Below, piece by piece: positions 3,199 through 19,772 of a DNA stretch of 32,000 nt. Every line of letters starts with the position of its first letter. Position 1 is the first letter of the stretch. The notes under the pieces were generated by a model. It searched no databases and was not told the DNA's origin. It worked only from the letters and a program-made list of their open reading frames with translations. Both the position numbers and the translations under genes were made by a program. This DNA comes from Methylotenera sp. (GTDB taxonomy: Bacteria; Pseudomonadota; Gammaproteobacteria; Burkholderiales; Methylophilaceae), in the NCBI RefSeq assembly GCF_030684185.1, contig NZ_JAUXOY010000014.1:1-32000 (forward strand). The letters are read 5' to 3'.

Positions 3199-3559
3199 CT
3201 CCTATCCAGTCAGCATATTGGTGATACATAATTTTTTCTGAGTAAGTGATTTCGTTCAGAAAATTACGCTTAATGGATACTAGGAGAACCCAAGTCGAGA
3301 ATATTACCAAAATTTTCAGTAGCTGCTGAATTTATTAAGTGGACCAGCATGAATTAAAAAACTGGATGGCCTAAAAGGCGGTTTTTTTATATACAGTTAC
3401 ATTCGTTTACAAATTGAAACAATTAAATTTAAAAAGCGTACATATTTGTATGCATTTATTACGTGGTTGAATCAATTGCCTGTCATCCTAGTGCCAGTTT
3501 TATGTGAGCAAATTGAGGTTAATTTACTTCACTCTTTTATATTATCTTTGGAGATAACT

Positions 3560-5431
3560 ATGTTTACAAAAAAACGAGTATTAGGACTAGCGGTAAGCGC
3601 AGCCTTGGCAATGCCAATGATTGCATCAGCAGCCGCTGACCAAGAAGCAGCAATGAAAGACGCAAACAACTGGGCTCACCCACGTGGTCAGCACGACAAC
3701 CAAGGCTACAGCAAGCTAGCGCAAGTAAATAAAGGCAACATCAAAAACCTTAAAGCTGCCTGGACATTCGCAACCGGTGTAAACCGTGGTCACGAAGGTT
3801 CACCAGTAGTTGTTGGTAACATGATGTATGTACATACAGCATTCCCAAACAACGTATATGCACTTGATTTAAACGACAATCAAAAAATCGTTTGGTCATA
3901 TTTCCCAAAACAAGACCCATCAGTACAAGCTGTTTTATGTTGCGATAACGTAAGTCGCGGTATGGGTTTTGGTGATGGAAAAATTTTCTTGCAACAAAAT
4001 GACGGTCACTTGGTGGCTTTAGACGCTAAAACAGGCGCTAAGGTTTGGTCTGTTTCAAATACAGACCCAAAAGTCGGCGCTACTAACACTAACGCGCCAC
4101 ACGTCATTAAAGATAAAGTGCTTACAGGTTGTTCAGGTGCTGAGTTCGGCGTACGTTGCTTTATCGCGGCATACAACATCAAAGACGGTTCATTAGCTTG
4201 GAAAGCTTACTCAACAGGCCCTGATGCTGAAGTGTTAATCGGCGAAGGCTTTAATAAAGATACACCTGAGTACAGTGCATTGTCAGTTTACCAAGACGTA
4301 AACGGCGGTAACAAAATTGGCGGTTCTTTCAAACCATTGCCACATGATCAATTGAAAATTGGCGAAAAAGAATTGGGTACACGTACCTGGTTAAAACCAC
4401 AGGCGGTTAAAGATGGCTGGCAACATGGTGGTGGTTCTGTGTGGGGCTGGTTTCCGTATGATGCCCGTACAAACTTAGTGTTCTACGGAATTGGTAACCC
4501 TTCTGTTTGGAATCCGGATGTACGTCCAGGCGACAACAAATGGTCTATGTCTGTATTTGCGCGTGATGTAGATACAGGTATGGCGCGTTGGGGCATGCAA
4601 ATGACTCCACATGATGAGTGGGATTACGATGGTGTGAATGAAGTGATCTTGTTCGACAAAGGCGGCAAAACTTATGCATGGCACCATGACCGTAACGGTT
4701 TCGCTTACACTTGGGTAGCTGGTACAGGTAAATTGGTTGCTGCTGAAAAAGTACACCCATTCGTGAACTGGGCCACTGGTGTTGATTTAAAAACCGGTGT
4801 GCCTAATAAAACACCAAATGCGTCAACGCACCAAGATTACAATGCTAAAGGCATCTGCCCGGCTGCATTGGGTACTAAAGATCAACAACCAGCTGCATAC
4901 TCACCAAAAACGGGTTTAATGTATTCACCACTTAACCACGTATGTATGACATACGAGCCGGTTGAGTCTAAATACGTTGCTGGTCAACCGTGGGTTGGTG
5001 CTACATTGACCATGTTCCCGGGTCCTGACGGTGTGATGGGTGGCTTTGCTGCTTATGACCCAATGACCAACAAAAAAGTATGGTACAACAAAGAGAAATT
5101 CTCTGCTTGGGGTGGTGTACTAACAACAGCTACTGGTTTAGTGTTCTACGGTACGTTAGATCGTTGGTTTAAAGCGGTGGATGATAAAACTGGTAAAGAA
5201 CTTTGGAAATTCCAAGTAGGTTCTGGCGTGATTGGTAATGCATTCACCTACGGTAACAAAGGTAAACAATACGTTGGCGTGCTATCAGGTATCGGTGGCT
5301 GGGCTGGTGTAGCGATGAACCTTGGTATGACTAACCCAACAGACGCTTTAGGCGCTGCGGGTGGTTATGCAGAACTAGTTAAATACAACGCGGCTCCTGG
5401 CGGCGGTGCATTGAACGTGTTTAGCCTATAA
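3560..5431 (+). CDS. xoxF: PQQ-dependent methanol/ethanol dehydrogenase, XoxF (lanthanide) type
   Basis: SD ggaga 7 nt upstream of the ATG at 3560, which is internal to the track ORF starting at 3446. Signal peptide MFTKKRVLGLAVSAALAMPMIASAAA. Vicinal Cys pair (VLCCDN), repeated W/propeller motifs, and WDYDGVNE, the extra Asp characteristic of XoxF (MxaF has WDYAG). Confidence 0.9.
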   Translation: MFTKKRVLGLAVSAALAMPMIASAAADQEAAMKDANNWAHPRGQHDNQGYSKLAQVNKGNIKNLKAAWTFATGVNRGHEGSPVVVGNMMYVHTAFPNNVYALDLNDNQKIVWSYFPKQDPSVQAVLCCDNVSRGMGFGDGKIFLQQNDGHLVALDAKTGAKVWSVSNTDPKVGATNTNAPHVIKDKVLTGCSGAEFGVRCFIAAYNIKDGSLAWKAYSTGPDAEVLIGEGFNKDTPEYSALSVYQDVNGGNKIGGSFKPLPHDQLKIGEKELGTRTWLKPQAVKDGWQHGGGSVWGWFPYDARTNLVFYGIGNPSVWNPDVRPGDNKWSMSVFARDVDTGMARWGMQMTPHDEWDYDGVNEVILFDKGGKTYAWHHDRNGFAYTWVAGTGKLVAAEKVHPFVNWATGVDLKTGVPNKTPNASTHQDYNAKGICPAALGTKDQQPAAYSPKTGLMYSPLNHVCMTYEPVESKYVAGQPWVGATLTMFPGPDGVMGGFAAYDPMTNKKVWYNKEKFSAWGGVLTTATGLVFYGTLDRWFKAVDDKTGKELWKFQVGSGVIGNAFTYGNKGKQYVGVLSGIGGWAGVAMNLGMTNPTDALGAAGGYAELVKYNAAPGGGALNVFSL

Positions 5432-5490
5432 TTTAACCTTACAGTTTTTAGTAAGATTAAGTTGTAACTAATACAAGGTAGTTATATTAA

Positions 5491-5525
5491 AACGCCTCGA
5501 TTCGTCGGGGCGTTTTATTATTTTT
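5491..5525 (+). terminator. Rho-independent terminator after xoxF
   Basis: 10-bp stem aacgcctcga/tcggggcgtt (one G-U pair), loop ttcg, followed by ttattattttt. Confidence 0.8.
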
Positions 5526-5575
5526 AGTGGTGGATAGTCGCCATTCTATGCAAGTCTTTCAAAATAACCTTGATT

Positions 5576-6886
5576 ATGAGCCTTCAGCTTAAATTGAATT
5601 TGATGATTACTGGACTTCTGCTGCTGCTGTTAAGCGCGAGTGCATTTTTTATTGTGAAAAACGCCAGTGAAGACGTTCGCGCTGAGGTAACGTCTACCGC
5701 CAATTTAGCTTTGCATTTATTAGATGCTGAAATATTGCAACATTCCTCTGATTTTGGCTGGATTAACAATGCCGAGAGTAATTCTATTTTCAGGTTGCAA
5801 AACTTAGGCAATATCAGACACCTGAAAATAGAGTTTTATGACATGAACGGCAAACTGCGTGAAAGCAACCGCAGTAAGCAACAGGGATTAGAAAATAATG
5901 CCCCGCCAAAATGGTTTACTAATGCCATGGGTCTGTCAGGCGCGGGTCTGAGTAAACACACTAGAAAAATTATGTTGAGCGGGCGTTATGTCGGACAGTT
6001 GGTCATCACGCCTGATCCGAGTTATGAGATTGCTGAAGTTTGGGGTGACACTATCTGGATTTTAGGTTTAGCGGCAATATTTTTTGTACTCATCAATATG
6101 TTAGTTTATTTTGCGGTGCGATACACATTCAAACCAGTCGATAGAATTGTAGAAGCACTCACGCAAATGCAGCATGGGTTATTCAGCAATAGGTTGCCCG
6201 ATTTTAAACAAGTGGAACTGCAGGAAATCGGCCAAAAATTTAATGCGATGGCAGATACGTTGCAGAAAAGTACGCAAAATAACCATCGCTTAACGCAGCA
6301 GGTTATCCGTTTGCAAGAAGACGAACGTAAAAACTTAGCACGTGAAATACACGATGAAATCGGTCAGTATTTAACGGCTATTCATATGGATGCCAGTGCA
6401 ATTTTAAACGGCAAGAAGTTGTCAGGTGCAAAAGAAAGCGCAAAAGCCATCAGTGATGTTACGCGTCAGATGATGGATATGGTCCGTGAGATTTTACAGC
6501 GCCTTCGCCCGCGTGTTTTGGATGAGCTTGGGCTTGGTTTAGCTTTAGATGAGTTGATGCACCAATGGCGTCATCGCAGCAGAAATGTCAGGCTGACTCA
6601 CAATATTACTAAAGATTTAGGCGTGCTAGATGAAGCAGTATCCATTACGGCATATCGAGTGGTACAGGAGTGTTTAACCAACATCGTAAAGCATGCCAAT
6701 GCGCGTCAGGTGGCTGTAAGTGTTACGCAAGATGCGCAATATATCTACATTAAAATCGAAGATGATGGTGTTGGTTTTGATACAACACTGGCAACGCAGG
6801 GCTATGGTCTGGCTGGTATGAGCGAGCGTATTCAGGGCTTAATGGGGCATATGAATTTAGATGATAAACGTATTGTTAGCAGATGA
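5576..6886 (+). CDS. Sensor histidine kinase, NarX/HisKA_3 family (HAMP + HisKA_3 + HATPase_c), apparently C-terminally truncated
   Basis: Two TM segments. HAMP-like region (FKPVDRIVEALTQMQHGLFSNRLP...). H-box LAREIHDEIGQYLTAI, N-box ECLTNIVKHANA, G1 EDDGVGF, G2 GYGLAGMSER. The ORF stops 20-odd residues earlier than usual and overlaps the regulator gene by 26 nt. Start is uncertain (TTG 5570 or ATG 5576). Confidence 0.75.
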   Translation: MSLQLKLNLMITGLLLLLLSASAFFIVKNASEDVRAEVTSTANLALHLLDAEILQHSSDFGWINNAESNSIFRLQNLGNIRHLKIEFYDMNGKLRESNRSKQQGLENNAPPKWFTNAMGLSGAGLSKHTRKIMLSGRYVGQLVITPDPSYEIAEVWGDTIWILGLAAIFFVLINMLVYFAVRYTFKPVDRIVEALTQMQHGLFSNRLPDFKQVELQEIGQKFNAMADTLQKSTQNNHRLTQQVIRLQEDERKNLAREIHDEIGQYLTAIHMDASAILNGKKLSGAKESAKAISDVTRQMMDMVREILQRLRPRVLDELGLGLALDELMHQWRHRSRNVRLTHNITKDLGVLDEAVSITAYRVVQECLTNIVKHANARQVAVSVTQDAQYIYIKIEDDGVGFDTTLATQGYGLAGMSERIQGLMGHMNLDDKRIVSR

Positions 6887-7493
6887 TCACACCGTAGTGC
6901 GCGCAGGCTATCGCCATTTATTGCAGTCTGCGCCTGATATTAAAATTATTGCAGAAGCCGATACCGGTGAAGAAGCCTATCGGCTTTGCGAACAACTGCA
7001 ACCGGATGTCACCGTTATGGACATCTCCATGCCGGGCATGGGTGGGCTTGAAGCCTTGCGACGCATACGCGCCCAAAACGAACATGCAAAAGTGCTGATA
7101 TTCAGCATGCACGATGACGCCGTATTTCCTTCACGCGCGCTTGAGGCGGGCGCACGCGGCTATCTTTCAAAGTCCTGCTCGCCAGAGGCACTGATACAAG
7201 CCGTGCGAACCATTGCCGCCGGCAGTAAATATATCGGGCAAGAAGTTGCACATAAGGTTGCATTGCAAATGTCGCAAGGCACAGGTAATTTACTTAAAAA
7301 ACTCACCCCGCGCGAGTTTGAAACATTCACCCTGTTAGCTCAAGGTGTGCCGCTGGCAGCGTTGGCAGAGCAACAGCATATTGACTATAAAACTGTGACA
7401 AGCGTGCAAGCGCGCATACGGCAAAAACTTGGCATAGAAAACACCGCACAATTAGTCATGCTGGCTATTCGGTCTGGGGTGATTAAAGTTTAA
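6861..7493 (+). CDS. NarL/FixJ-family response regulator (REC + LuxR-type HTH)
   Basis: MINVLLADDHTVVRAGY..., phospho-acceptor context VTVMDISMPGMGG, C-terminal LTPREFETFTLLAQG...TVTSVQARIRQKLG; 210 aa. Confidence 0.9.
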   Translation: MINVLLADDHTVVRAGYRHLLQSAPDIKIIAEADTGEEAYRLCEQLQPDVTVMDISMPGMGGLEALRRIRAQNEHAKVLIFSMHDDAVFPSRALEAGARGYLSKSCSPEALIQAVRTIAAGSKYIGQEVAHKVALQMSQGTGNLLKKLTPREFETFTLLAQGVPLAALAEQQHIDYKTVTSVQARIRQKLGIENTAQLVMLAIRSGVIKV

Positions 7494-7878: not shown

Positions 7879-8811
7879 ATGAAAAACTTAAGCATGAAAA
7901 AAATTGTGAAAAAAGAACAGGGTTTTACGCTGTTAGAACTATTAGTGGTGATTACACTATTAGCGATTCTTTCAGTAGGCGCATTAGTCGCTTATGAAGG
8001 TGTTGGCGATAACGCACAAGCCACAGCAGCTGCCAACAACACAGCAGGTGCAGACCGTGCGATTCGTAACTATAAAGCCGTGACATTAAACTACCCGGAT
8101 CAATGGGATATGTTATCTACTACAACAGGTGCAACGCCAACTTTCTTGCACACTAAAACACAAGCAGCATTTGGTGTAATGACAGCTCCTGCTGCTGGTG
8201 CATTTAAAACTAAATTTGATGCAGGCTTTGTATCTGTAGGTATTACAGAGTTGCAAACACGTATAATTCCTGGTTTAACACCCAATGTAGACCCTAACTT
8301 GCAACACAATGAAGGTGCACTTGGTCTTTCTGCTGGTACTGACGTAGTTGAAGATGACTTTGGTAATTTTAACTTCTATTCAATCTTGCCAACATTTGGT
8401 GCGGCTGCATGTCAGATTAATGGTGCTGCACCAGCTGTTTTCACTAAGTTAAACGGTGATGCATTTACAGCAGCTGATGGCCAACGTCAAAACGTAATCA
8501 ATGATTACCTTGGTGCAGACGAATGTCATCTAGTCTTGGCTTTAGGTTTCGGTCACGATGCGGCTCATAGCACTAATAACGCTTCAGTGGCTATTGCAAC
8601 TGCACCTACTTTTGTTAGCAAAGACATCAACCCAGCTAAAAACTATGCACGTTACGTTGCATTGTTCCATGTAGGTGGTGACGGTGAAAATGACGGCGTT
8701 GAAGATGGTGATATTACTGTAGATGAATTATTTGCTAAACCACGTTTATTGGCTGTAGTGGACACTGCTGGCAACGTAATTGACGAAAACATCGCTAAAC
8801 AAAATCCATAA
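7879..8811 (+). CDS. Large type IV pilin/pseudopilin-like protein (putative major subunit)
   Basis: SD aggaga 7 nt upstream. Class III signal MKNLSMKKIVKKEQG|FTLLELLVVITLLAIL with Glu at +5. 295-aa mature part with 2 Cys. First gene of the cluster, followed by a hairpin. Confidence 0.85.
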   Translation: MKNLSMKKIVKKEQGFTLLELLVVITLLAILSVGALVAYEGVGDNAQATAAANNTAGADRAIRNYKAVTLNYPDQWDMLSTTTGATPTFLHTKTQAAFGVMTAPAAGAFKTKFDAGFVSVGITELQTRIIPGLTPNVDPNLQHNEGALGLSAGTDVVEDDFGNFNFYSILPTFGAAACQINGAAPAVFTKLNGDAFTAADGQRQNVINDYLGADECHLVLALGFGHDAAHSTNNASVAIATAPTFVSKDINPAKNYARYVALFHVGGDGENDGVEDGDITVDELFAKPRLLAVVDTAGNVIDENIAKQNP

Positions 8812-8884: not shown

Positions 8885-9210
8885 TTAATGTGTAAGCCCC
8901 ATAATTAAAGGCAGTATTGTAAAAATGGTGGTTATAAAAAGTAGTGATTAAAAGACAAAGACTAGGTAGTAAAAGTAATCGCTAAAAAGAAGAGGGTACA
9001 AAAACAATAATGTCTGTGATGTTTGAGCTTAAGCCCAATGCCCGCCATGCCGCTAAACAGCGCCGTGGTTTTTTGCGTTTTTTGGGTTTTGCTGTGAATA
9101 ATAAGCTACAGCTTATGTATTCCACGGTAAAAACCCTTGCGATTTTGGCTGCGGATTTACAGCTTAGCCTAAAACTAAAAACAAGACTAAAAACAACAAC
9201 ACGCCAGTCT

Positions 9211-9593
9211 TGCCCTGTGGTTCGACAAGCTCACCAACCGAGCCTGTCGAGTCGTGCCCTGAGCTTGTCGAAGGGAAACCTACCGAAATGACACAGCCCC
9301 TTCGACAAGCTCAGGGAACGGTAGGGAGTGTAGCCTGTAGAGTCGTGCCCTGTGGTTCGACAAGCTCACCAACCGATCCTGTCGAATCGTTCCCTGAGCC
9401 TGTCGAAGGGAAATCTACCAAAACGACACAGCCCCTTCGACAAGCTCAGGGAACGGTAGGGAGTGTAGCCTGTAGAGTCGTGCCCTGTGGTTCGACAAGC
9501 TCACCAACCGAGCCTGTCGAATCGTTCCCTGAGCCTGTCGAAGGGAAATCTACCAAAACGGCACAGCCCCTTCGACAGGCTCAGGGAACGGTA
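9211..9593. repeat. Tandem array, about 2.8 copies of a 135-bp unit built from nested inverted repeats (core ttcgacaRgctc)
   Basis: Units start at 9211, 9346 and 9481 (exact 135-bp period). Each has a 19-bp-arm hairpin ccctgagcYtgtcgaaggg...cccttcgacaRgctcaggg with a 22-nt loop, plus a second 12-bp-arm imperfect hairpin. The same family recurs at 13413-13565. Confidence 0.9.
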
Positions 9594-9649
9594 AGTGTGA
9601 GAGCGTTGATGCATTTTTTATTTAAAAATATTTTTGTAAAGGCTTATTG

Positions 9650-10765
9650 ATGCCGAAAATTCAAACAAACAAAACCAAGCGCCAACATCAACGCCAGCTG
9701 GGCTTTACTTTGCTAGAGCTGTTGGTGGTCATCGGTTTGTTGGGATTAGTAGCGATGTCTATCACTGGCCTGATGATTGAAGACCAAGGCGTAAAACGCC
9801 AAGAAGTGACTGAAAAGCGCTGGGATGAAATTCGCAAGGCGATTATTGGGGATACCTCACGCACCTTAAACGGCGAGCCTATGTTAAGTGGCTATGTGGC
9901 CGATATGGGCAGGTTGCCACGTAATTTAACAGAGCTTATGGTGAAAGATTATGATGATGATAATGACCCATTAACACCTGATTTTGTACAGCCTGCCTGG
10001 GCAGAATTTGCACTCTACGACCCTATTGCTGGTTGTACGCCTAATCCTTGCACACCTTTAACCCTTGGTGCAGGCTGGCGTGGCCCGTATTTATATACGG
10101 GCGGCAGTAAATATTTTAAAGATGGCTGGAGTGCCACAGAAACAGCGGACCTCGATTTTGATTGGGCGGTGACGTTAACAGGCACATCACCTGCACATAG
10201 TGCTATTGCCGTGCAAAGTTTGGGATTTGATAATGCTGTCGGCGGTACAGAATATAAAGCGGATTACCCAGAGGCTGGCATCAATACGGTGTATGCCAGC
10301 GACTGGCAACTAAGCACATTACCTACACCGCCTACCATTCAATTTACAATTCACTTTAATAAAGCACCATTATTTGCGCAAACCGCACTGGAGCTTAGAA
10401 TTTATTATTTCCAAGATGATGCAAACGTTACGACTTCTCCTGCGGATTTTATAAAAAATAATGAACAAGTAAGCAATGTCCTATTTGATTTGCCAACAAC
10501 TACGCCACCAGTGCCAGTTAGCACAAGCATCACATACAGCCCTCCAACTGCCCCTACTCCCCCGCCATATTTGCCTTTGGGTAAATACGCTGCGCTAGTC
10601 TGGTGTACGGATGACCCAGCAACCCCCACCACTGAGCCAGATGTTATTTATGACGGCAACTGCGACTCTGAACAAGACACTGATGTTAAGCCTTATTACT
10701 TTACTATGCTACCCAGTGCTACGCCTACCATTAAAATCTATTGGAACACCCAGGACACCCCTTAA
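9650..10765 (+). CDS. Large GspG-like pseudopilin with a Pro/Thr-rich C-terminal extension
   Basis: SD aaagg 7 nt upstream of the ATG at 9650. Leader MPKIQTNKTKRQHQRQLG|FTLLELLVVIGLLGLVA with Glu at +5. GspG-like segment (RWDEIRKAIIG...LSGYVADMGRLPRNLTEL). PT-rich tract PTTTPPVPVSTSITYSPPTAPTPPPY. Confidence 0.8.
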   Translation: MPKIQTNKTKRQHQRQLGFTLLELLVVIGLLGLVAMSITGLMIEDQGVKRQEVTEKRWDEIRKAIIGDTSRTLNGEPMLSGYVADMGRLPRNLTELMVKDYDDDNDPLTPDFVQPAWAEFALYDPIAGCTPNPCTPLTLGAGWRGPYLYTGGSKYFKDGWSATETADLDFDWAVTLTGTSPAHSAIAVQSLGFDNAVGGTEYKADYPEAGINTVYASDWQLSTLPTPPTIQFTIHFNKAPLFAQTALELRIYYFQDDANVTTSPADFIKNNEQVSNVLFDLPTTTPPVPVSTSITYSPPTAPTPPPYLPLGKYAALVWCTDDPATPTTEPDVIYDGNCDSEQDTDVKPYYFTMLPSATPTIKIYWNTQDTP

Positions 10766-12589
10766 ATGCGTTTAAATGATTTAGTTGAAAAGCTCCCGTT
10801 TTTACAGCGGGTTAATTCTGTTTTAGTGTGCGAGGTTGACCACGCAGGGTTAAGAGCTGCGGTGGTGGTGCGGCATGGTGATGAAGTCACCAGCACATTT
10901 GAGGCTAGCTCTGCCTTGCTGGACTTTAATGCTGCCGTGGCCGAGGTGGTAAAGCACGTGCGTGAGCAGGGCTGGGTGGGCAAGCATGCAATTTTGCTGA
11001 CACCAGCGGTGTTGCTGGCGATGCTGGATTTACCAATTCCGCAAAAAAACAAGCTGGCCCCTGCCGAAGTGGCAGAAAAAATTGATTGGGAGCTAGAGCC
11101 GCTTATTACCCAGCATTTAAGCACCTTGGCTTTGGGCAGGCTGTTGGTGGCACTTGGGTTTATGACGGCTGACCATGTAGACGATGTGATTAGCCAGCAA
11201 AGCTACAGCAATAATACCCATCATGTAGACCCCAATAAAACTTATACCTATAAGCGTTTTGGCGAGGTGGCGATTGAAATGGGCTATATCAATCAGGCGC
11301 AGCTGCAAAAGTGTTTAGATATTCAAAGCTGGTTTCAATCCACAGGTGATGAAGTTAAATGCGGCTGGTCTGCACAGGGTTTGTTGGCTAGCGATGATAC
11401 GGGCAGTGCAAATATGTATCAGTGGCTGGCCAGCGGTGTGAATCAAAGCCTGTTGCGCCAGTGGCAGGCGGCTTTTACGGCGCATCAAATCAAGCTGGAA
11501 TATCTTTATCCGTTGGCTGGATGTGCTGCCAGCATGCCGGATTTAGCTAATAAGGATTTAAAACATCAGTTATTGCTTGAGGTTTATGAAACCGTTATCG
11601 CGGGTGTTCATATTGCGGGCAACCGCATTGTTAGCTTGCATATTCAGCCCAGCACCTTACAAGACACGCTGGCGAATATTGCCGAAACGTATCACTCGCT
11701 TGAAGCCGCTGAATTGGATGCGGTGTGGCTGGTTGATTCTGTATCTAACAATGAAATTGAAGCCAGTAAGTTACACAGCAATTTAGAGGCGGTGGTGTCA
11801 CTGCCGATTAAAACGCTGGCTCGCCAAACGCATTTAGTCAGTGTAGGCATGCTGGGCGCCGCACGCCACATGTTTAAAATGAAAGGCGCACATTATGTGG
11901 CAGGTGTGCCTGTTAGCAACCCGCAGCCTGGCCTGTTGCAGCGTTTGGAAGTGCGTGCCTTTTTGGCAGGCTTGGCTTTGTTGCTTACTATTGGTTTGGC
12001 TGAAGTGGTGCTGCAGGTGCGGCAAAGTCTGATTGAATCTGAAAATGAGCGCGTCAGCAAAGACCTGAAAGTGATAGATGATGCCATTGCAAGGGTGCAA
12101 GCTAAAGTAGATGAAGTTAAAAAGCTTAAAGGTAGCATCAAAGACTTGCAAGCTGAGCAAAAAGAAACACAGGCAGCAGCAAATTTACTTTCTGCGGATT
12201 TACCCAAGCGCAATCAAACCGTTATTTCCTTTCTTAGTGCATTAGATCGGTCGATTTCTGATGATGTGGTGATAGATAGAATTGCTGAAGACCCGATTTA
12301 TGGTTTTACTATCAATGCCTGGTCGTTAAATGATAAATCTGCACAAGAATTTGTAAAAACCCTTCAGGTGGCGGTGCATCCGTTAGGTTATAAATTGAAA
12401 GATGTAACGGTGTCCAGCCAAACTGGCCGATTAGGTTTAATGGGTTCTTCGGTGAGTTTTAGCGCCACATCGCTGGATGATAAAGCTTGGGCTACCGGCA
12501 AATCGTCGCCTAACAAAGCTTTACCCGCTGCTACCGGTAATGCCAGAGTTGCAATCCCTATACCAGCCCCAGCTAAGGAGGTTCAATAA
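10766..12589 (+). CDS. PilM-PilN fusion / GspL- or MshI-like assembly protein (bitopic)
   Basis: The ATG abuts the upstream stop (taaATG). Cytoplasmic N-domain with PilM-like features (…KIDWELEPLI…). Single TM FLAGLALLLTIGLAEVVLQV (about 11955-12020), then a coiled coil and a periplasmic domain. 607 aa. The fold assignment is by eye only. Confidence 0.65.
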   Translation: MRLNDLVEKLPFLQRVNSVLVCEVDHAGLRAAVVVRHGDEVTSTFEASSALLDFNAAVAEVVKHVREQGWVGKHAILLTPAVLLAMLDLPIPQKNKLAPAEVAEKIDWELEPLITQHLSTLALGRLLVALGFMTADHVDDVISQQSYSNNTHHVDPNKTYTYKRFGEVAIEMGYINQAQLQKCLDIQSWFQSTGDEVKCGWSAQGLLASDDTGSANMYQWLASGVNQSLLRQWQAAFTAHQIKLEYLYPLAGCAASMPDLANKDLKHQLLLEVYETVIAGVHIAGNRIVSLHIQPSTLQDTLANIAETYHSLEAAELDAVWLVDSVSNNEIEASKLHSNLEAVVSLPIKTLARQTHLVSVGMLGAARHMFKMKGAHYVAGVPVSNPQPGLLQRLEVRAFLAGLALLLTIGLAEVVLQVRQSLIESENERVSKDLKVIDDAIARVQAKVDEVKKLKGSIKDLQAEQKETQAAANLLSADLPKRNQTVISFLSALDRSISDDVVIDRIAEDPIYGFTINAWSLNDKSAQEFVKTLQVAVHPLGYKLKDVTVSSQTGRLGLMGSSVSFSATSLDDKAWATGKSSPNKALPAATGNARVAIPIPAPAKEVQ

Positions 12590-13332
12590 TGGCTTTCGAT
12601 AAAATCAGCAGTCGCGAGCAGGTACTTATTTTTATTGTGATTACTACATTTGTCGCGGGGGGCTATGGGTTGCTTAGATTTGTGCCGCAGACCAAACAAT
12701 TAGCCGAGTTGCAAGCCACCGTTAAAGTTAATCAAGACAAAATTAAAAATCCGAACTTTCCTGATGAGCCTACGGAGGATACTGAAGATTTAAAAGACAA
12801 GCTGGAAGATTTAGAAAATGTAATGGTGAATGTGCGCGCTAACCTTGAAGCACTGGAAAAAAATCTTGCGCCAACTGATAGCCAGGAAATGGTATTAAAA
12901 ATATCTGAAGCGGCTCGTGCATCCGGGGTGAGAGTGATTGAAAACGTGCCTTATTTGGTGCAAAGAAAAGATGGCGAAACGGCTAATCAAGCCAATAAGC
13001 CAAAAATATCTAAAAGAGGTCAAAGAAAATTAGATAGAGAAGCCAAAAAAAAAGCGCAGCAAGCGGGTGGTGCTGCGGCAGCTTCTGCCAGCGGCGGCAT
13101 TCCTAAAGAAGGCGAGCTGATTTACCGCTTGGTAAACGAGCTGGAAACATCACGGCCTTTTCAGCGTATTAGTGTTGAGGGTAGTTTTGCAGATTTGCAA
13201 AAATTCGTTCAGTCTGTACGTACCATGCCTTGGCAAGCCACCATTGTGAAGCTGGATATTGATGTGGCGATTCAAACCCCGCCACAAGGTATGCCACAGC
13301 CGATTACCGCACGTATGATTATTGCGATTTAG
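12589..13332 (+). CDS. PilO/GspM/MshJ-like bitopic assembly protein
   Basis: TAATG overlap with the upstream gene. N-terminal TM VLIFIVITTFVAGGYGLL followed by a coiled coil (LAELQATVKVNQDKIKN…LEDLENVMVNVRANLEALEKN). The position after the PilM/N-like gene fits this role. Contains a Lys/Ala-rich insert. Confidence 0.6.
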   Translation: MAFDKISSREQVLIFIVITTFVAGGYGLLRFVPQTKQLAELQATVKVNQDKIKNPNFPDEPTEDTEDLKDKLEDLENVMVNVRANLEALEKNLAPTDSQEMVLKISEAARASGVRVIENVPYLVQRKDGETANQANKPKISKRGQRKLDREAKKKAQQAGGAAAASASGGIPKEGELIYRLVNELETSRPFQRISVEGSFADLQKFVQSVRTMPWQATIVKLDIDVAIQTPPQGMPQPITARMIIAI

Positions 13333-13412
13333 CAGGTTAAATTGATGACCTTTAATCTAATAATACAACTATTTCCTCGCCTCAACCTCCTCTTTAGTCT
13401 GGTCAAGACTAG

Positions 13413-13565
13413 CTGTTCCCTGAGCTTGTCGAGCCGTTCCCTGAGCTTGTCGAAGGGCGGCGGAGATTTAGTTACCATTAGTTCCTGTAGCCCTTCGACA
13501 AGCTCAGGGAACGTGGGTCCTTCGACCACTTCGGCAAGCTCAGGACAGGCAGGCTCAGGGAACAG
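13413..13565. repeat. Solo copy of the ttcgacaagctc nested-palindrome repeat family
   Basis: Perfect 22-bp inner arms gttccctgagcttgtcgaaggg (13436-13457) / cccttcgacaagctcagggaac (13491-13512). 13-bp outer arms ctgttccctgagc (13413-13425) / gctcagggaacag (13553-13565). Confidence 0.9.
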
Positions 13566-13607
13566 CGAGCTTTGGTGCAAAAATTTTAGTTCAATAGTCT
13601 TTAAATC

Positions 13608-15251
13608 ATGGCATTAAACACTGAACAACTCATAGAAGCGGGGCTTAAGCAGAGGCTGATTGAGGCGGATGTGCTTAACCAGTTACGCACAGAATCGCGC
13701 CGTAAGCGTATTGATATTCTGGATGCGATTATGGCGCACTACCGCTTGCCTGTCAGTGCGCTATATCGTGCTGTAGCCGAAATGCGCGGTTTAAAATTTG
13801 TAGATTATGCGCAAGCCAAGCCTGATGCTGAATTATTAAAAAAAATTCCGCAGGCATTGGTTAGGCGTAAAGGTTTATTGCCATTGCTGCATGATGAGCC
13901 AGGTGTATTGTTAGCCACAGCAGACCCAGATGACCGCGCCAGCATTGAAACAGTTAGACGTATTTTAGGCAGTCAGTTGCGCGTGGCCGTGGCAGAGCCT
14001 AATACGCTTAATGCGGCAATCAATCGCGCGTACCTCAGTCAAGCTGCCGCACCTAGTGGCTTGCCAACAGCGGCAGCTGAGGTGGATTTAGTAAGCTTGC
14101 TTGATAGTATTTTTAAAGAGGCTTATTTGCGTAGGTCTTCTGATATTCATTTGGTGCAGGATGAGTTTGGTTTACGCGTACGTTTACGTGTAGATGGCGA
14201 GTTGCAAGATTATGTAACTGATAGTGTGCATGATACAACCGTGGCTAACGGGCTTATTTCACGCATTAAAGTATTGGCTAATTTAGATATTGCCGAGCAG
14301 CGCGAACCGCAAGATGGCGGCATGTCTTATTACTTGCCACCGCCGATTGATAGCGAGTTTAACGTGCGCGTGGCCACCGCGCCAACGCGGCTGGGTGAGC
14401 GTGTGACTATGCGCGTGCTGGGGCAGGATGCGCAGGATTTAACCTTAGAAAAAATCGGCATGTCTGAGCCGGATATGCTGATGTTCAACAAAGCCATCAG
14501 AAAACCATTCGGTATGATTTTGCTCACAGGCCCTACGGGTAGCGGTAAATCCACCACGCTATTTGCGGCATTACGCGAAATTAGCTCGCCCAGCATTAAC
14601 ATTATGACGGTAGAAAACCCGGTGGAATATGTGATGGAAGGGGTTTCTCAAATTCAAACAGGGGCAAAAGTTACCTTTGCCAGTGCGTTGCGGTCTTTAT
14701 TGCGGCACGACCCCGATGTGCTGATGGTGGGTGAAATCCGCGATGAAGAAACCGCCGATACCGCGCTCAAAGCGGCGATGACGGGTCATTTGGTATTTTC
14801 TACCCTGCACACCAATACGGCGGCAGGTACGGTATCGCGTTTAATCGACATTGGCTGTGAACCGTTTTTAATTGGTTCTACCATGAATGCGGTGATTGCA
14901 CAGCGTTTGGTGCGCAAGTTATGTTCGCATTGTAAAACCAGCCATGCTGCAACCGATGAAGAAAAAAATCTATTAGACTTACCAGCAGAAACGGAAGCTC
15001 AAATTTATGAGCCAAAAGGTTGTGCTTTTTGCCAAGGTTCAGGCTATCGCGGGCGTTTGGGCTTGTTTGAAACATTATGGTTTGATGAAGAGCTTAGTAA
15101 ACTGGTGGCCAAAGGCTGTAGTGAAGAAGAGCTGGAGCAGCGTGCAGGCCCACAGCGATTACGCCCGATGTGGGTAGATGGCACTGCAAAAGTATTGGCT
15201 GGTATTACCACCATTGCTGAACTGCAAAGCGTTGCAGTGAAAAGGCATTAA
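13608..15251 (+). CDS. GspE/PilB/MshE-family secretion/assembly ATPase
   Basis: T2SSE_N-like N-domain (…GLKFVDY…LLKKIPQALVRRKGLLPLL…LLATADPDD). Walker A GPTGSGKST, Walker B/Asp box DVLMVGEIRDEETA, His box GHLVFSTLHTN, tetra-Cys CSHCK…CAFCQGSGYRGR. Confidence 0.92.
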   Translation: MALNTEQLIEAGLKQRLIEADVLNQLRTESRRKRIDILDAIMAHYRLPVSALYRAVAEMRGLKFVDYAQAKPDAELLKKIPQALVRRKGLLPLLHDEPGVLLATADPDDRASIETVRRILGSQLRVAVAEPNTLNAAINRAYLSQAAAPSGLPTAAAEVDLVSLLDSIFKEAYLRRSSDIHLVQDEFGLRVRLRVDGELQDYVTDSVHDTTVANGLISRIKVLANLDIAEQREPQDGGMSYYLPPPIDSEFNVRVATAPTRLGERVTMRVLGQDAQDLTLEKIGMSEPDMLMFNKAIRKPFGMILLTGPTGSGKSTTLFAALREISSPSINIMTVENPVEYVMEGVSQIQTGAKVTFASALRSLLRHDPDVLMVGEIRDEETADTALKAAMTGHLVFSTLHTNTAAGTVSRLIDIGCEPFLIGSTMNAVIAQRLVRKLCSHCKTSHAATDEEKNLLDLPAETEAQIYEPKGCAFCQGSGYRGRLGLFETLWFDEELSKLVAKGCSEEELEQRAGPQRLRPMWVDGTAKVLAGITTIAELQSVAVKRH

Positions 15252-15253
15252 CG

Positions 15254-16480
15254 ATGGCAAAATTCAAATACACCGCTATCAATAGTGCAGGTAAAGAAAG
15301 AAAAGGCAGCATTCAGGCCTTGGATACCAATATGGCGTCAGCAGCCTTAAAAGAGCAAGGGCTGTATGTGATTAAAATTGGCGCAGAAACCAGCAAGGCA
15401 GAGGGTGGATTGTCGAAAGAGTTTAATTTTTCAAGTCTGAATAAGTACCGTTCAGTTTCTAAAACGCAATTGGTTTTTTTCTTTAAGCAGCTTTCGTTTA
15501 TGTTGCGTGCAGGTTTGCCTGTGATGCAAGCTTTACAGCTCTCTCAGACTCAGGTTTCAAGCGGGCGCTTACGCTTGGTCATTGGTGAAATGCTGAGCGA
15601 TATTGAAAATGGCAGCCAGGTATCAAAAGCTATGGAGAAGCATAGTGAGGTATTTCCAGCCATCGCCATTAACTTAATGGCGGCAGGTGAAAGTACAGGT
15701 TCGCTGGACTTGGTGGCAAACCGCCTGGCGGATCACCTTGAGAAAAAAGCCGCGCTTAAATCACAAACCATCAATGCCATGATTTATCCATCAGTGGTAG
15801 TGGTTGCCGCGATAGGCGTAGTGATTTTTTTAGTGGTTAAAATTATTCCGACATTCGCTAAGTTTATTCAGGGCAAAGGCAAAAAATTACCGGCTTCTAC
15901 CCAGTTTTTAATCGACGCTTCAGACTTTGCACTCAAATACGGACTATTTTTTGTAGCGGCTTTTATTTTGAGCGTGGTTGTTTTAATCACGGCCTACAAC
16001 ACGCCATTGGGGCGTTTGAAAATTGATGGTTTTTTATTGAAAATCCCCGTAATAGGCAAACTGCTTTCGCATGGGGCCATGGCAGAGTTTAACTGGTCGC
16101 TCTCTATGATGTTGCGTAGCGGTTTAACTGCGTATGAGTCGCTCAAAATATGCGGCAAGGTTATTGCCAATCGCCTTATCTCTACCAAGTTGTATCTAGC
16201 TGCCGACCAAATTTTAACAGGGCGCGATTTGGCTTCCAGCTTAAAGCATCCTGCTATTCCGGAATTAGTGATACAGATGACTGCTGTGGGTGAAAAAACC
16301 GGAACGCTGGACTTAGTGTTGCAAGAAGTTGGCGTGTTTTATGAAATGCAGTTGCAGGTAGGTGTAAAGCGCATGAGCGCAATGATAGAGCCTGCCATGA
16401 TATTGGTGATAGGCGGAATTGTTGGTTTTGTGTATTACGCGTTTTTTCAGGCCATGTTTTCTTTGGTGTCGAAAGGTTAA
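15254..16480 (+). CDS. GspF/PilC-family inner-membrane platform protein
   Basis: Two repeats of the T2SSF-type domain (…FFKQLSFMLRAGLPVMQAL… and …FNWSLSMMLRSGLTAYESL…), 3 TM segments, 408 aa. Starts 2 nt after the ATPase stop. Confidence 0.9.
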   Translation: MAKFKYTAINSAGKERKGSIQALDTNMASAALKEQGLYVIKIGAETSKAEGGLSKEFNFSSLNKYRSVSKTQLVFFFKQLSFMLRAGLPVMQALQLSQTQVSSGRLRLVIGEMLSDIENGSQVSKAMEKHSEVFPAIAINLMAAGESTGSLDLVANRLADHLEKKAALKSQTINAMIYPSVVVVAAIGVVIFLVVKIIPTFAKFIQGKGKKLPASTQFLIDASDFALKYGLFFVAAFILSVVVLITAYNTPLGRLKIDGFLLKIPVIGKLLSHGAMAEFNWSLSMMLRSGLTAYESLKICGKVIANRLISTKLYLAADQILTGRDLASSLKHPAIPELVIQMTAVGEKTGTLDLVLQEVGVFYEMQLQVGVKRMSAMIEPAMILVIGGIVGFVYYAFFQAMFSLVSKG

Positions 16481-16485
16481 AGATT

Positions 16486-16962
16486 TTGAAAATTACTAGT
16501 TTTTATCAAACTGTATTGGGTGTGATTAGTAGTGCTGGTTTGCTGTTTTTTATATCCACCAGCGTCATGGCGGCCGATGCCTTTTCAGGCTATTACGGCG
16601 GTAACGGCCAAAATCAGCAGAACGGCAGAATACAGCGTGACCCCTTTACCACCAGCGACAAAATGTATGGCGAAGTAGGTGCGCAAGCCGCACAAAGGGC
16701 AAGTAACGCACAAGGCTTTATTCCGGGTTATGGGGCGCAGGCAGTGCCAAAAATGCGACTAAAAGGCTTTGTGACTAAAAGCAATAAAAAAGCGGCGGCT
16801 CTGCTGGATGTTGAAGGTGTTGGCGTGTATTTGGTGAGTGAAGGCGATGAAATAGGCTTGCAGGCCATGGGGCAGAATAGTGTTTTAAAAATCATCGGGG
16901 TCAGTGCCAATGGCGTAAAAGTGCAATCTGGTCAGGTGAATCAAGTGATAGTTGTACGTTAA
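16486..16962 (+). CDS. PilP/GspC(HR)/MshK-like small periplasmic protein
   Basis: TTG start. Signal/anchor VLGVISSAGLLFFISTSVMAADA. C-terminal beta-rich segment MRLKGFVTKSNKKAAALLDVEGVGVYLVSEGDEIG…LKIIGVSANGVKV, typical of secretin-docking PilP/HR domains. Located immediately upstream of the secretin gene. Confidence 0.6.
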   Translation: MKITSFYQTVLGVISSAGLLFFISTSVMAADAFSGYYGGNGQNQQNGRIQRDPFTTSDKMYGEVGAQAAQRASNAQGFIPGYGAQAVPKMRLKGFVTKSNKKAAALLDVEGVGVYLVSEGDEIGLQAMGQNSVLKIIGVSANGVKVQSGQVNQVIVVR

Positions 16963-16970
16963 GTAATTAG

Positions 16971-19052
16971 GTGATTATTTTGGTGGGTATGTTAGCAATG
17001 AATAAACCTTTAGATAAGATTTTGGATAAAACAAGAATGAATAAAATGATGGTAACTAAGAAATCACGCCTATCCGCGCGATGGTGTCTGCAATTGGCGG
17101 TTCTAGGTGTTGCACTAACTGCTTTGTTACCAATTCAAGCTTATAGTGACAATGGTGTTTTGATTACCCCAGTAGAACCTGTGCTAGGTGTTGCACCAGA
17201 TGAAAGCGTGATAGTCGCTACACCGGCAACTCAAAACCTGAACACTGAAAAAGCCAATCAAACACGTAATAAAAAAATAGCCGCCAAAGCTACTCCACCT
17301 AAAAATGCGGCACTTAAAAAATCGTCGACCACCGCTGAAAATGCAATTATCAGCAAGCTGGAGTTTAAGCAGGCCAATATGGTAGATGTGGCGCGCGCGC
17401 TGGCAGATATGTCAGGTTTAAACATAGTAGCGACTGAAGAAGCAGCAAAAAAAACCGTGACGGTGTTTTTGCAAAACATAACAGTTAAAGATGCGCTGGA
17501 TACTATTAGCAAGAATAGCGGGCTTTGGTACAGGCAGGATAAAATCAGCAAAACTTATCGCATTATGAGTACCGATGAATATCAGCGCGATATGGTGGTA
17601 TATCGTGACGATGTTACCAGAGTGTTCGATATATTGCACCCTAACCCCATCATTATTGCCAATGCAATCAAAGATTTATATGGCAAAAGAGTGAGGCTGT
17701 CCATCGGGGTTGAAGACAACACAACTATGGGCAATTTTGGAGCTGCGGGTGCAGCATCAGCGACGACTAGAAATATTGGGGGTAATAACTCAAGCCTGAA
17801 TAGCTCGCGCCAGAATAATAATCGCCAAGCGGGTGGGAGTGCAGACGGAAACAATGAAGATGGCAGTAATCGGGTTGTGATTACAGAAAAACTATCAGTT
17901 GAAAAGATTTCCAGGTTGGAGGAGCAATTAAAAGCACAAAATGACGATAAAACTATTTCGGCAGAAATGCTTAGAGATTTATCTACGCAAGAGCAACCAA
18001 TTTTTGTGACGCTAAATCGTGAACACAGTTTTGTGATTGTACGCACTAGCGATACGCTTGCTATTAGCGATATAGATCAATTGATTAAACAAATGGATAG
18101 ACCCACGCAGCAAGTGCTGCTGGAGATGAAAATATTGTCATTAGAAGTAGGAGATGCCTATCGTCAAGCGTTTGATATTGATTACATTCCCAACAGTACT
18201 GCGGTACAAGGGCCATTGACAGATCAAGATAGAAATCCACTACATAGTACTAAGCCAGATAGCATTTCTGAAACCACTCCTTATACCACTTCCGGAGGTG
18301 GTACTGGGACTTTGACTCGTAGTGGGGATATTGCAGTAGGCGGGGTTAGGAACATATTGGGGCTAGGTAACTTTGCGTTGGAAGGGGGTACTTTTGTATA
18401 TCAGTTTATGAATGACAAAATTCGGGCGCGTATTCAACTATTACAAACAAACAATAAAATCAACACATTAAGCTCCCCCATTTTACTGGCGACTAATAAT
18501 AAACCTGCCCGCGTATTCGTCGGCTCAGAGCAGGTAATTACCACGGGGTTTGATGCGGTGGCGGGCGGAGCTAACTCCGTTTCTGTTGGTGCACCTGCGG
18601 TTATTCCTGTGACTGAAATAAGAAACGTCGGTAATACCCTGCAAATCATGCCAAAAATTAATGCAAATGGAACCGTAACTTTGATGATTCAGCAAGACTC
18701 ATCCTCAATACTGCCTGGTTCAAGTTCTATTCCTGTCGTAGTTGGTTCAACTGTACAAAGATTCAATGTAGATACAGTAAAAACTTCAAACATACAAGGC
18801 ACAGTTGTGGCAAAAGATGGCTTAACGGTTGCCATTGGCGGTTTGATTGACAGCTCGGAAAGTGAAGAGGAGCAAAAAGTCCCAATCTTAGGTGATATAC
18901 CTTTAGTCGGTGAGTTATTTAAACGTAAAGCGAAAACAAAAGGAAAACGCGAGCTTTTGTTATTGATTACTCCGCACATTATTGCAAATTCCCTAGAAGC
19001 TGAAAATGTAACGAGAGATGCTATCGAGCCAATTTCAGACCAGGAATGGTAA
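16971..19052 (+). CDS. Secretin (GspD/PilQ/MshL family)
   Basis: PilQ/MshL-style N0 region (ISKLEFKQANMVDVARALADMSGLNIVATEE…VTVFLQNITVKDALDTI). C-terminal secretin signature VPILGDIPLVGELFKRKAKTKGKRELLLLITPHII. Start is uncertain: GTG 16971, ATG 16998 or 17037-17049, and the signal peptide h-region is CLQLAVLGVALTALLPIQA. Confidence 0.9.
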   Translation: MIILVGMLAMNKPLDKILDKTRMNKMMVTKKSRLSARWCLQLAVLGVALTALLPIQAYSDNGVLITPVEPVLGVAPDESVIVATPATQNLNTEKANQTRNKKIAAKATPPKNAALKKSSTTAENAIISKLEFKQANMVDVARALADMSGLNIVATEEAAKKTVTVFLQNITVKDALDTISKNSGLWYRQDKISKTYRIMSTDEYQRDMVVYRDDVTRVFDILHPNPIIIANAIKDLYGKRVRLSIGVEDNTTMGNFGAAGAASATTRNIGGNNSSLNSSRQNNNRQAGGSADGNNEDGSNRVVITEKLSVEKISRLEEQLKAQNDDKTISAEMLRDLSTQEQPIFVTLNREHSFVIVRTSDTLAISDIDQLIKQMDRPTQQVLLEMKILSLEVGDAYRQAFDIDYIPNSTAVQGPLTDQDRNPLHSTKPDSISETTPYTTSGGGTGTLTRSGDIAVGGVRNILGLGNFALEGGTFVYQFMNDKIRARIQLLQTNNKINTLSSPILLATNNKPARVFVGSEQVITTGFDAVAGGANSVSVGAPAVIPVTEIRNVGNTLQIMPKINANGTVTLMIQQDSSSILPGSSSIPVVVGSTVQRFNVDTVKTSNIQGTVVAKDGLTVAIGGLIDSSESEEEQKVPILGDIPLVGELFKRKAKTKGKRELLLLITPHIIANSLEAENVTRDAIEPISDQEW

Positions 19053-19088: not shown

Positions 19089-19772
19089 ATGAATTTATTG
19101 AAAACGAAATTACCGAGCTTAGGCGTATTGATTTTAGCGCTATCTTTAACAGGCTGTGCAACCTCTATACCCCAAGCCGAAAACTTTTCTGCAACCAAGC
19201 AGAAAAAGGTAATGGCTGCCCAGCACTGGGGGGTGATTGCTGCTGATGCTGTTGAGCAAACAAGATTGGCATTAGTAAAACAGACATTTGTTAAAGATAA
19301 GCCTTTATATGTCACTGATAACGAAAGCACAGAGTTTAGCCGTGCTTTTCGTAAATATATGATTGCAGGCTTGCTTGATGCAGGGTTTGTGGTTTCAGCT
19401 AAAAAGGAAGGCGCGGTTGAGGTTGGCTTCGAGGCACAGGTAATTCGTCATGCTTCGTCATTCGACCCGCAGGCTTATGGCTATAAGCCTGGCATGGCCA
19501 CGGCTGGCGTAGCAGGTTTTTGGGTACTACGTGATGCACTGCGTTACGGCGCATCGGCAGGCACGGTTTTGGCAACCGTTGCTGCAGCGGGCGGTACTGA
19601 TTACTATAATGCCAAAAATCCAGGTGAAACCGGTGTGGAATTATTAATTAGCACGTCAATTATTCATGCTGACCGCTACGTGATGCTAAACGCCGATGCC
19701 TATTACATTGAAAAAGGCGAGGCGTGGCTGTTTGAAGGATGTAAAGGTAAAAACCGGCGCCAATGTCGTTAG
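19089..19772 (+). CDS. Lipoprotein of unknown function (possible secretin-associated/pilotin-like)
   Basis: SD aagga 8 nt upstream. Lipobox LSLTG|C. Gly/Ala-rich hydrophobic segment GMATAGVAGFWVL…GASAGTVLATVAAAGG. 227 aa. The functional link rests on position only. Confidence 0.7.
   Translation: MNLLKTKLPSLGVLILALSLTGCATSIPQAENFSATKQKKVMAAQHWGVIAADAVEQTRLALVKQTFVKDKPLYVTDNESTEFSRAFRKYMIAGLLDAGFVVSAKKEGAVEVGFEAQVIRHASSFDPQAYGYKPGMATAGVAGFWVLRDALRYGASAGTVLATVAAAGGTDYYNAKNPGETGVELLISTSIIHADRYVMLNADAYYIEKGEAWLFEGCKGKNRRQCR

Follow-up and report, generated by a model that had tools for sequence, protein, structure and literature searches.

Does the stator of a type IV filament machine read the second messenger cyclic di-GMP (c-di-GMP)? 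The question is raised by a pilus gene cluster of Methylotenera sp. in the first 32,000 nucleotides (nt) of the forward strand of contig NZ_JAUXOY010000014.1, a stretch that is called the window throughout. The cluster encodes an assembly-platform protein of 607 amino acids (aa), in which two motifs of the type found in the c-di-GMP receptor domain MshEN had been noticed from the letters of the DNA. Sequence matches and structural models point to a genuine MshEN_N-type four-helix bundle, made of two 24-residue motifs and occupying about 75 residues inside the actin-like domain of the protein. That an MshEN-type module is inserted in a PilM/N-like protein was the central claim of this sequence-only reading, and it was borne out by the agreement between the NCBIfam model NF053729, a profile search of the PDB, and AlphaFold and Foldseek. 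The protein and its insert are laid out as follows.

10766-12589, plus strand: platform protein, 607 aa (open reading frame; AlphaFold, Foldseek)
11129-11200, plus strand: MshEN-type motif 1, aa 122-145, ALGRLLVALGFMTADHVDDVISQQ, with predicted helices 123-129 and 135-150
11201-11254, plus strand: spacer of 18 aa, aa 146-163, a low-confidence loop (predicted local distance difference test, pLDDT, about 55)
11255-11326, plus strand: MshEN-type motif 2, aa 164-187, RFGEVAIEMGYINQAQLQKCLDIQ, with predicted helices 165-171 and 177-187

The motifs lie where they had been placed (aa 122-145 and 164-187; 11129-11326) and are indeed 18 aa apart. WELEPLI, the stretch behind which the insert was said to sit, is at aa 108-114.

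The host belongs to a divergent type IV filament machine, in which it is the assembly-platform (stator) protein of PilM/GspL-PilN type. The AlphaFold model of the whole protein (pLDDT 79) comprises a cytoplasmic PilM/GspL-like actin fold (about aa 1-390), a membrane helix (about 397-415), a long coiled coil and a C-terminal PilN/GspL-like alpha/beta domain (about 500-570); one long helix starts at residue 394, holds the hydrophobic membrane segment and runs on as the coiled coil. With the full model, Foldseek gave PilM as the best match (5eou/2ych, E 4e-11 to 3e-9), followed by FtsA and the cytoplasmic domain of GspL (4pht_X/5tkw, about E 1e-6), and the cytoplasmic domain has the actin-like (RNase-H-like double) fold by this comparison. 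Because of these PilM and GspL matches, of the layout of the helix and coiled coil, and of Pfam PilN matches to the C-terminal domain in 2 of 41 relatives, we regard the protein as a fusion of a PilM/GspL-like with a PilN-like domain. No Pfam family covers it: Pfam PilM_2 and T2SSL and NCBIfam GspL gave no match, and a phmmer search of the whole protein against the PDB returned coiled-coil noise only. Among the 41 relatives, NCBIfam GspL weakly matched one (E 0.0047). Judging from the order of secondary-structure elements in the model, the insert would stand behind the long helix that follows the first beta-sheet subdomain, i.e. in the region of PilM subdomain 1C or GspL domain II, and the 2B subdomain appears to be absent.

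How closely do the two motifs agree with those of known receptors? The published strict MshEN motif is RLGxx(L/V/I)(L/V/I)xxG(L/V/I)(L/V/I)xxxxLxxxLxxQ, present in two tandem copies that are separated by 5 aa, which gives a 53-residue unit (Wang et al. 2016). Copy 1 departs from it at positions 1, 11, 12, 17 and 21 (Ala at 1, then F11, M12, V17 and I21) and copy 2 at positions 2, 6 and 11 (F2, A6 and Y11), hydrophobic character being lost only at position 1 of copy 1. A full match apart from the first Arg, as had been claimed, was therefore an overstatement, since it is true only if hydrophobic substitutions are allowed. As to the relaxed census motif of Wang et al., [RKPN]hGxxhhxx[GAS]hhxxxxhxxxhxx[QNKRYWST], copy 2 fits it fully and copy 1 at all positions but the first (Ala). 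Gly3 and Gln24, the polar ligand contacts, are present in both motifs (G124, Q145, G166 and Q187).

A pattern of this kind could reflect a chance likeness of amphipathic helix hairpins, or a helix-turn-helix (HTH) element that binds DNA. The relaxed regular expression is unspecific by itself, as two further stretches of the window, hydrophobic and membrane-like (6038 and 30439), match it too, and one relative (P0016) carries the JGI label 'XRE family transcriptional regulator', the other public names, where given, all being hypothetical. In 20,000 shuffles of the protein, however, at least one relaxed match was found in 230 and at least two in a single one. Pfam scans of the 607-aa protein and of its 41 relatives revealed no HTH family, and the protein is membrane-anchored and encoded inside a pilus operon. 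We hold chance or a DNA-binding element to be extremely improbable, and this explanation is effectively refuted by the results obtained with NF053729, the PDB profile and Foldseek.

NF053729 ('c-di-GMP_motif') is a curated NCBIfam model of 53 positions (24+5+24) with a cut-off of 38 bits. It was the sole model to give a meaningful match with the whole 607-aa protein (E 1.6e-8; 34.2 bits, which is below the cut-off), the best stretch being aa 164-187, aligned to model positions 1-24. The score rose to 40.0 bits, above the cut-off, with the isolated insert, and to 45.2 bits when the spacer was trimmed in silico to 5 aa, in which case a single stretch covered model positions 2-52. At E<=0.01, the model matched 30 of 41 platform proteins of the family. 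We also searched 177,635 distinct PDB sequences with the single insert and with a profile of 25 family inserts. The matches (E 4e-5 to 0.01) were exclusively to the N-terminal motifs of MshE (5HTL), PilF and PilB. The EpsG model TIGR03029 was weakly matched by the insert as well.

Structure prediction gave the same answer. In the AlphaFold model of the whole protein, the insert is made of the four helices listed above (pLDDT 85-93), joined by a floppy spacer, and when it was modelled alone the pLDDT was 81; a four-helix bundle was thus predicted, with Foldseek in agreement, despite the 18-aa spacer. The top three PDB structures found by Foldseek with the insert model were 5htl_A (MshE with c-di-GMP), 8pfa_A (PilF GSPII-B with c-di-GMP) and 9g1w (PilF GSPII-A), with probabilities of 0.89-0.95 and root mean square deviations (rmsd) of 1.6-3.8 A (1.8 A over 65 columns for 8pfa_A). 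The E-values were about 1 because the helical domain is short (about 60 residues), and the weight of this comparison rests on the ranking and the probabilities.

Pfam PF05157 ('MshEN', formerly T2SSE_N) had been put forward as the arbiter: the idea was to be abandoned if this model failed to match the platform protein or strongly matched the ATPase of the cluster. The result was as so worded: the ATPase was strongly matched (aa 61-146), the 607-aa protein and all 41 relatives were not. This result turned out to be uninformative. In control searches, PF05157 also gave no match with the N-subdomains of the binders VcMshE (7-62) and PilF GSPII-B, nor with that of Geobacter PilB. PF05157 reports the MshEN_C/T2SSE_N subdomain and not the c-di-GMP-binding N-subdomain. 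As proven binders go unmatched in their N-subdomains too, we rejected PF05157 as a decisive test, and its result refutes nothing. NF053729 behaved differently with these controls, giving 64-87 bits with the proven binders VcMshE and PilF GSPII-B and with the motif-bearing N-subdomain of Geobacter PilB. Its bit score was rejected in turn as a predictor of binding, as PilF GSPII-A, a proven non-binder, scores 55.5 bits; the score therefore speaks for homology only. For a census of receptors, this means that neither PF05157 nor NF053729 can be used alone to call a c-di-GMP receptor.

Is the insert a peculiarity of this strain? Word-indexed searching yielded 47 relatives, each about 600 aa long, the closest of which were named Methylotenera. 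In an exhaustive profile search, 1,163 representative clusters (50% identity) came up at E<=0.001 and 265 at E<=1e-30. Of the best 150 relatives, most have the insert, and in the same place. Conservation was determined in a set of 48 close sequences and in a wider set of 121 representative clusters. In the close set, Gly3 and Gln24 of motif 1 are found in 45/48 and 46/48 sequences, and those of motif 2 in 48/48 and 45/48 (94-100% overall), while Arg1 of motif 2 is found in 39/48. Positions 2, 17 and 21 are hydrophobic in 92-100% of the sequences, and the turn glycine, Gly10, is less conserved (40/48 and 41/48, i.e. 83-85%). Motif 2 is also well kept in the 121 clusters (Arg1 in 103, Gly3 in 115 and Gln24 in 111, or 85-95%). 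The spacer measures 11-19 aa in the 48 relatives and 7-9 aa in the distant members P0164 and P0178. P0164 has near-textbook motifs (PLGAILMRRGLLSEAQLAEVVAEQ, 7 aa, RLGTLAIEFGFLGAPDLEDALAIQ) and gives 43.9 bits with NF053729 in a single stretch.

The genome scan, in which one genome per species was searched with a single peptide pattern, gave 41 loci (L006-L046). The carriers belong almost all to Methylotenera, Methylophilus, Methylophaga, Methylomonas, Methylomicrobium and Methyloprofundus, the others being two Nitrospirota, one member of the Hyphomicrobiales and one Pseudomaricurvus assembly. Cultured strains among the carriers include Methylotenera mobilis 13, Methylomonas methanica R-45363 and Methylophaga thiooxydans DMS010. 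They are thus mostly methylotrophs and methanotrophs from two proteobacterial classes (Methylophilaceae, Methylococcales, Methylophaga), a distribution that is biased because the scan relied on one peptide pattern.

If the platform protein carries the receptor module, what has become of the corresponding module of the motor? The cognate ATPase is encoded two genes downstream and has the following parts.

13608-15251, plus strand: PilB/GspE-type ATPase, 547 aa (PF00437, E 2e-116)
13608-13787, plus strand: degenerate MshEN_N, ATPase aa 1-60 (alignment to PilF GSPII-B)
13788-14045, plus strand: MshEN_C/T2SSE_N subdomain, ATPase aa 61-146 (PF05157, E 1.9e-17)
ATPase aa 161-539, plus strand: T2SSE ATPase domain (Pfam PF00437)

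When aligned with PilF GSPII-B, the N-terminus of the ATPase has Ile and Asp, not Gly, at position 3 of the two motifs, and Ser and Met at position 24. The statement that it lacks RLG and Gly10 was thus right in substance; the detail about Gly10 depends on the alignment, the glycine of LIEAG being present. In MshE, the Gly-to-bulky changes G11L and G40I at position 3 abolish c-di-GMP binding (Wang et al.), and the loss of binding by XpsE was ascribed by the same authors to changes that include G11V and G40L. NF053729 did not match the N-terminus of the ATPase even at E<=1, nor did it match any of 40 cognate ATPase N-termini, and the relaxed motif was not found in six ATPases. An MshEN-like N-terminus without the key glycines, degenerate yet strongly conserved, is present in 40/40 cognate ATPases, and the N-terminus of the L047 ATPase is degenerate in the same way. 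As NF053729 matches 30/41 platform proteins and 0/40 ATPases, the contrast between a motif-bearing platform protein and a degenerate ATPase, which had been described for the window, holds across the family.

The consensus of the ATPase N-termini is EQLIxAG..LIE...L..LR..ARRxR..LL....AHYRLP.SALYRA.AE. R31, R34, R46 and P48 are invariant in the 40 sequences and lie inside the 'ARRxR ... AHYRLP' signature. Such conservation in the absence of the c-di-GMP residues indicates that this N-terminus is constrained by another function, which is perhaps docking to the platform protein.

The proposal that control had 'moved' from the ATPase to the platform protein fared less well, as it concerns an evolutionary event and degenerate motifs are common among GspE/PilB-type ATPases (XpsE; PMC5013675). 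Relatives that have no insert and whose ATPase has intact motifs would support a transfer; none was found. Of those among the top 150 relatives that the hidden Markov model of the insert does not match, six were read (P0076, P0118, P0134, P0166, P0181 and P0186), and a degenerate remnant is still there in each. The ATPase of locus L001 had been a candidate for loss of MshEN. We rejected it, since the gene in question is an extra PilT-like gene preceding the PilB-like one.

Does the insert then bind c-di-GMP, entering the signal at the stator? From sequence and models, we rate the chances for and against as even. Every polar and hydrophobic contact position defined in 5HTL is present in the insert, and these positions are preferentially conserved in close relatives. 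MshEN_N alone suffices for c-di-GMP binding in MshE (PMC5013675). Arg1, which motif 1 lacks, is dispensable in known modules: PilF GSPII-B, which binds c-di-GMP at 6 nM, has Lys and Leu in its place (PMC11731258), and changes of R9 cost less than 5-fold in binding (PMC5013675). In the proposed mechanism, one c-di-GMP molecule would span both helix hairpins and be contacted by the backbone amides of Gly124/Arg125 and Gly166/Glu167 and by the side chains of Gln145 and Gln187. Leu123, Leu180 and Leu184 on the one hand, and Phe165, Val138 and Ile142 on the other, would form the hydrophobic contact clusters, and Arg164 would stack on one guanine. The bound ligand would rigidify or reorient the bundle, and this might change the docking of the PilB-like ATPase to the platform, or the stimulation of the former by the latter. 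PilM and GspL both stimulate the ATPase and form the cytoplasmic socket that it docks into (PMC6325625; PMC11656802; PMC5013675). With an ATPase MshEN_N that looks ligand-blind across the family, the input of the second messenger would therefore be at the stator and not at the motor.

A number of observations weigh against binding. Used as a regular expression, the strict motif matches neither copy; the spacer of 18 aa is not the canonical one of 5; and position 1 of motif 1 is never Arg in the 48 close relatives (it is Ser, Ala or Thr). The C-terminal half of motif 1 drifts in the wider family, Gln24 being kept in about one-third of the 121 clusters, and the inserts of some members, e.g. P0076 and P0134, are clearly degenerate. 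The presence of the motif is moreover insufficient for binding, as shown by PilF GSPII-A (PMC12002112), which outscores the insert (40-45 bits) on NF053729. Helix alpha1 of GSPII-A is extended at its N-terminus and blocks the site; binding did not return when the full consensus was restored (PMC12002112). In the AlphaFold model of the platform protein, motif 1 directly continues a long helix (99-121). Helix alpha1 is unbroken from residue 117 in the model of the isolated insert, and the whole-protein model differs as to a break at residue 122. If continuous, alpha1 could occlude half of the site.

Several of these features would also be expected if the bundle derived from MshEN_N no longer bound a nucleotide and served as a rigid 'landing pad' for another protein on the stator, possible partners being the degenerate N-terminus of the PilB-like ATPase or a PilT-like ATPase, for motor switching. 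PilF GSPII-A, with its 55.5 bits and its lack of binding, is a precedent, for which the authors proposed just such a landing pad (PMC12002112). A motif 1 that lacks Arg1 and is fused to the preceding long helix, a non-canonical spacer, and an ATPase N-terminus that is strongly conserved for some other function (the invariant R31, R34, R46 and P48) are in line with this role, and the persistence of degenerate inserts in some relatives suggests a structural role that outlived the motif. The conservation pattern speaks the other way. Apart from contacting the ligand and starting the helix, Gly3 and both Gln24 are not known to play any structural part, yet their conservation in close relatives exceeds that of the turn glycine, whereas non-binding modules drift at these places (H33 and R62 in GSPII-A, PMC12002112; Ser/Met and others in the cognate ATPases). 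We consider the landing pad a serious explanation, though one that is more probably wrong than right.

The ligand might also be another nucleotide second messenger, such as 3'3'-cyclic GMP-AMP (3'3'-cGAMP). One half-site is non-canonical because motif 1 lacks its Arg, and MshEN can bind cGAMP too, according to PMC5013675. No specific sequence feature points in this direction, however, and all characterised MshEN_N modules are primarily c-di-GMP receptors, which makes a different ligand improbable.

The neighbouring genes confirm that the platform protein belongs to a filament machine. Besides those of the platform protein and the ATPase, the cluster comprises the following genes.

7879-8811, plus strand: type IV pilin-like protein, 310 aa, with an N-terminal methylation motif (Pfam N_methyl, E 1.6e-8)
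9647-10765, plus strand: second pilin-like protein, 372 aa (Pfam N_methyl, E 3e-6)
12589-13332, plus strand: PilO/GspM-like partner, 247 aa (weak Pfam PilO match, E 0.0019; its place behind the platform gene is kept in all loci examined)
15254-16480, plus strand: PilC/GspF-type platform protein, 408 aa (Pfam T2SSF, E 8e-49; NCBIfam GspF 311 bits, PilC 280 bits)
16486-16962, plus strand: PilP-like small protein, 158 aa (faint Pfam PilP match, E 0.064; position kept in relatives)
16971-19052, plus strand: secretin, 693 aa (Pfam Secretin, E 4e-38)

The order of the genes (pilin, pilin-like, 607-aa platform gene, PilO-like, PilB/GspE-type ATPase, PilC/GspF, PilP-like and secretin) is repeated in every related locus examined (L001-L005, L047 and L048). 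In distant clusters, an extra PilT-like ATPase of about 365 aa is encoded between the pilO-like and pilB-like genes (L001 5852-6952; L034 9415-10524; L035 2313-3491; L048 10980-12077; L049 7360-7860); neither the window nor its close relatives have this gene. Its presence in some distant clusters makes a retractile pilus more likely than a classical secretion system. No GGDEF or EAL gene was found in the window.

The pilin genes are directly preceded, in the window (3446-7493) and in the distant relatives L002 (3608-5633) and L047 (1110-3190), by genes for a MoxY-type sensor kinase (LapD_MoxY_N + HisKA_3) and a REC-LuxR response regulator. In the window, the pair adjoins a gene for a pyrroloquinoline quinone (PQQ)-dependent (XoxF/MxaF-like) dehydrogenase. 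This suggests that the pilus cluster is under two-component control of the methanol-oxidation type. In L002 (5848-7641) and L004 (5368-7179), the gene immediately before that of the pilin is Wzy_C/O-antigen-ligase-like, which suggests glycosylation of the pilin in these relatives; the window has no such gene. Directly downstream of the secretin gene, the window has an open reading frame of 227 aa (19089-19772) that gave no Pfam match. An aspartic-protease-like gene occupies this position in L002, and a prepilin peptidase gene is found a few genes further in L047. Between the two pilin-like genes (9206-9593) there is a 135-nt tandem repeat (2.9 copies, 95% matches), and a related element of 36 nt, which includes an inverted repeat of 25 nt, lies at 13401-13574, where a gap of 275 nt separates the pilO-like gene from that of the ATPase. 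This gap is nearly nil in relatives (5 nt in L002). The repeat looks like a mobile intergenic element that invaded the operon.

Taken together, sequences and models suggest, tentatively and with the balance tipped slightly towards doubt, that the stator protein of an uncharacterised, widespread subfamily of type IV filaments (at least 1,163 clusters at 50% identity) reads c-di-GMP directly. The MshEN_N module itself is known and promiscuous. Its placement inside a PilM/GspL-PilN platform protein is a new architecture, for which we found no counterpart in papers or in the published catalogue: full-text searches of the literature and the supplementary tables of Wang et al. disclosed no description of a PilM/GspL-MshEN architecture, and a 2024 review of pilus-motor regulation mentions the ATPase and adaptor routes only (PMC11656802). 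If the stator is a sensor, this would be a third route of control of pili by second messengers, beside MshEN in the ATPase and the FimX/PilZ adaptors. It would put the signal at the socket where both extension and retraction motors dock, and would offer a concrete handle on the regulation of stator-motor engagement. In a bolder version, the ligand-bound bundle on PilM would pair with the ligand-blind MshEN_N remnant of the ATPase, making docking of the motor dependent on c-di-GMP. A domain and a candidate function can in any case be proposed for a large family that is annotated as hypothetical and that no Pfam model covers.

How does this arrangement compare with known systems? The closest are MshEN_N of VcMshE (5HTL) and GSPII-B of Thermus thermophilus PilF (8PDK/8PFA), which are the best matches of the insert in the PDB in both sequence and fold. 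They share with it the two tandem 24-residue helix-hairpin motifs and the four-helix bundle and, in both copies, Gly3, Gly10, Gln24 and hydrophobic residues at positions 2, 6, 7, 11, 12, 17 and 21. In the protein described here, by contrast, the module is located inside an actin-like platform protein and not at the N-terminus of an ATPase, and no MshEN_C follows it. The spacer has 18 aa instead of 5, motif 1 starts with Ala (Ser, Ala or Thr in relatives) in place of Arg, motif 2 has Phe at position 2, and c-di-GMP is a putative ligand only. PilF GSPII-A (9G1W), the MshEN-like module that does not bind, also has high motif similarity and ranks in the structural top three. Unlike the insert, it no longer has Gln24 in either motif, nor Gly3 in motif II (PMC12002112).

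Isolated MshEN_N has been recorded as a portable c-di-GMP sensor on unrelated outputs (Wang et al. 2016, Suppl. Table 4), as in Methylobacillus EpsG (MshEN_N-AAA_31), Bd2402 (REC-MshEN_N), CheA, CheX and an M23 peptidase. The module is terminal in those fusions and an internal insertion here, and PilM, GspL and PilN are not among the architectures listed. With PilM of type IVa pili, GspL of type II secretion systems and fused PilM-PilN proteins, the 607-aa protein shares the actin-like cytoplasmic fold (Foldseek E 4e-11 to 1e-6), a single membrane helix, a periplasmic coiled coil and alpha/beta domain, and a gene located beside those for a PilO/GspM-like protein, the ATPase, PilC/GspF and the secretin. 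It differs from PilM and GspL by the four-helix insert of about 75 aa and by having no significant PilM or GspL match in Pfam or NCBIfam. Finally, the FimX/PilZ adaptors have in common with the proposed sensor that c-di-GMP reaches the pilus motor without binding directly to the ATPase (PMC11656802). They are separate soluble proteins with EAL or PilZ-type sites, whereas the candidate sensor described here is built into the stator.

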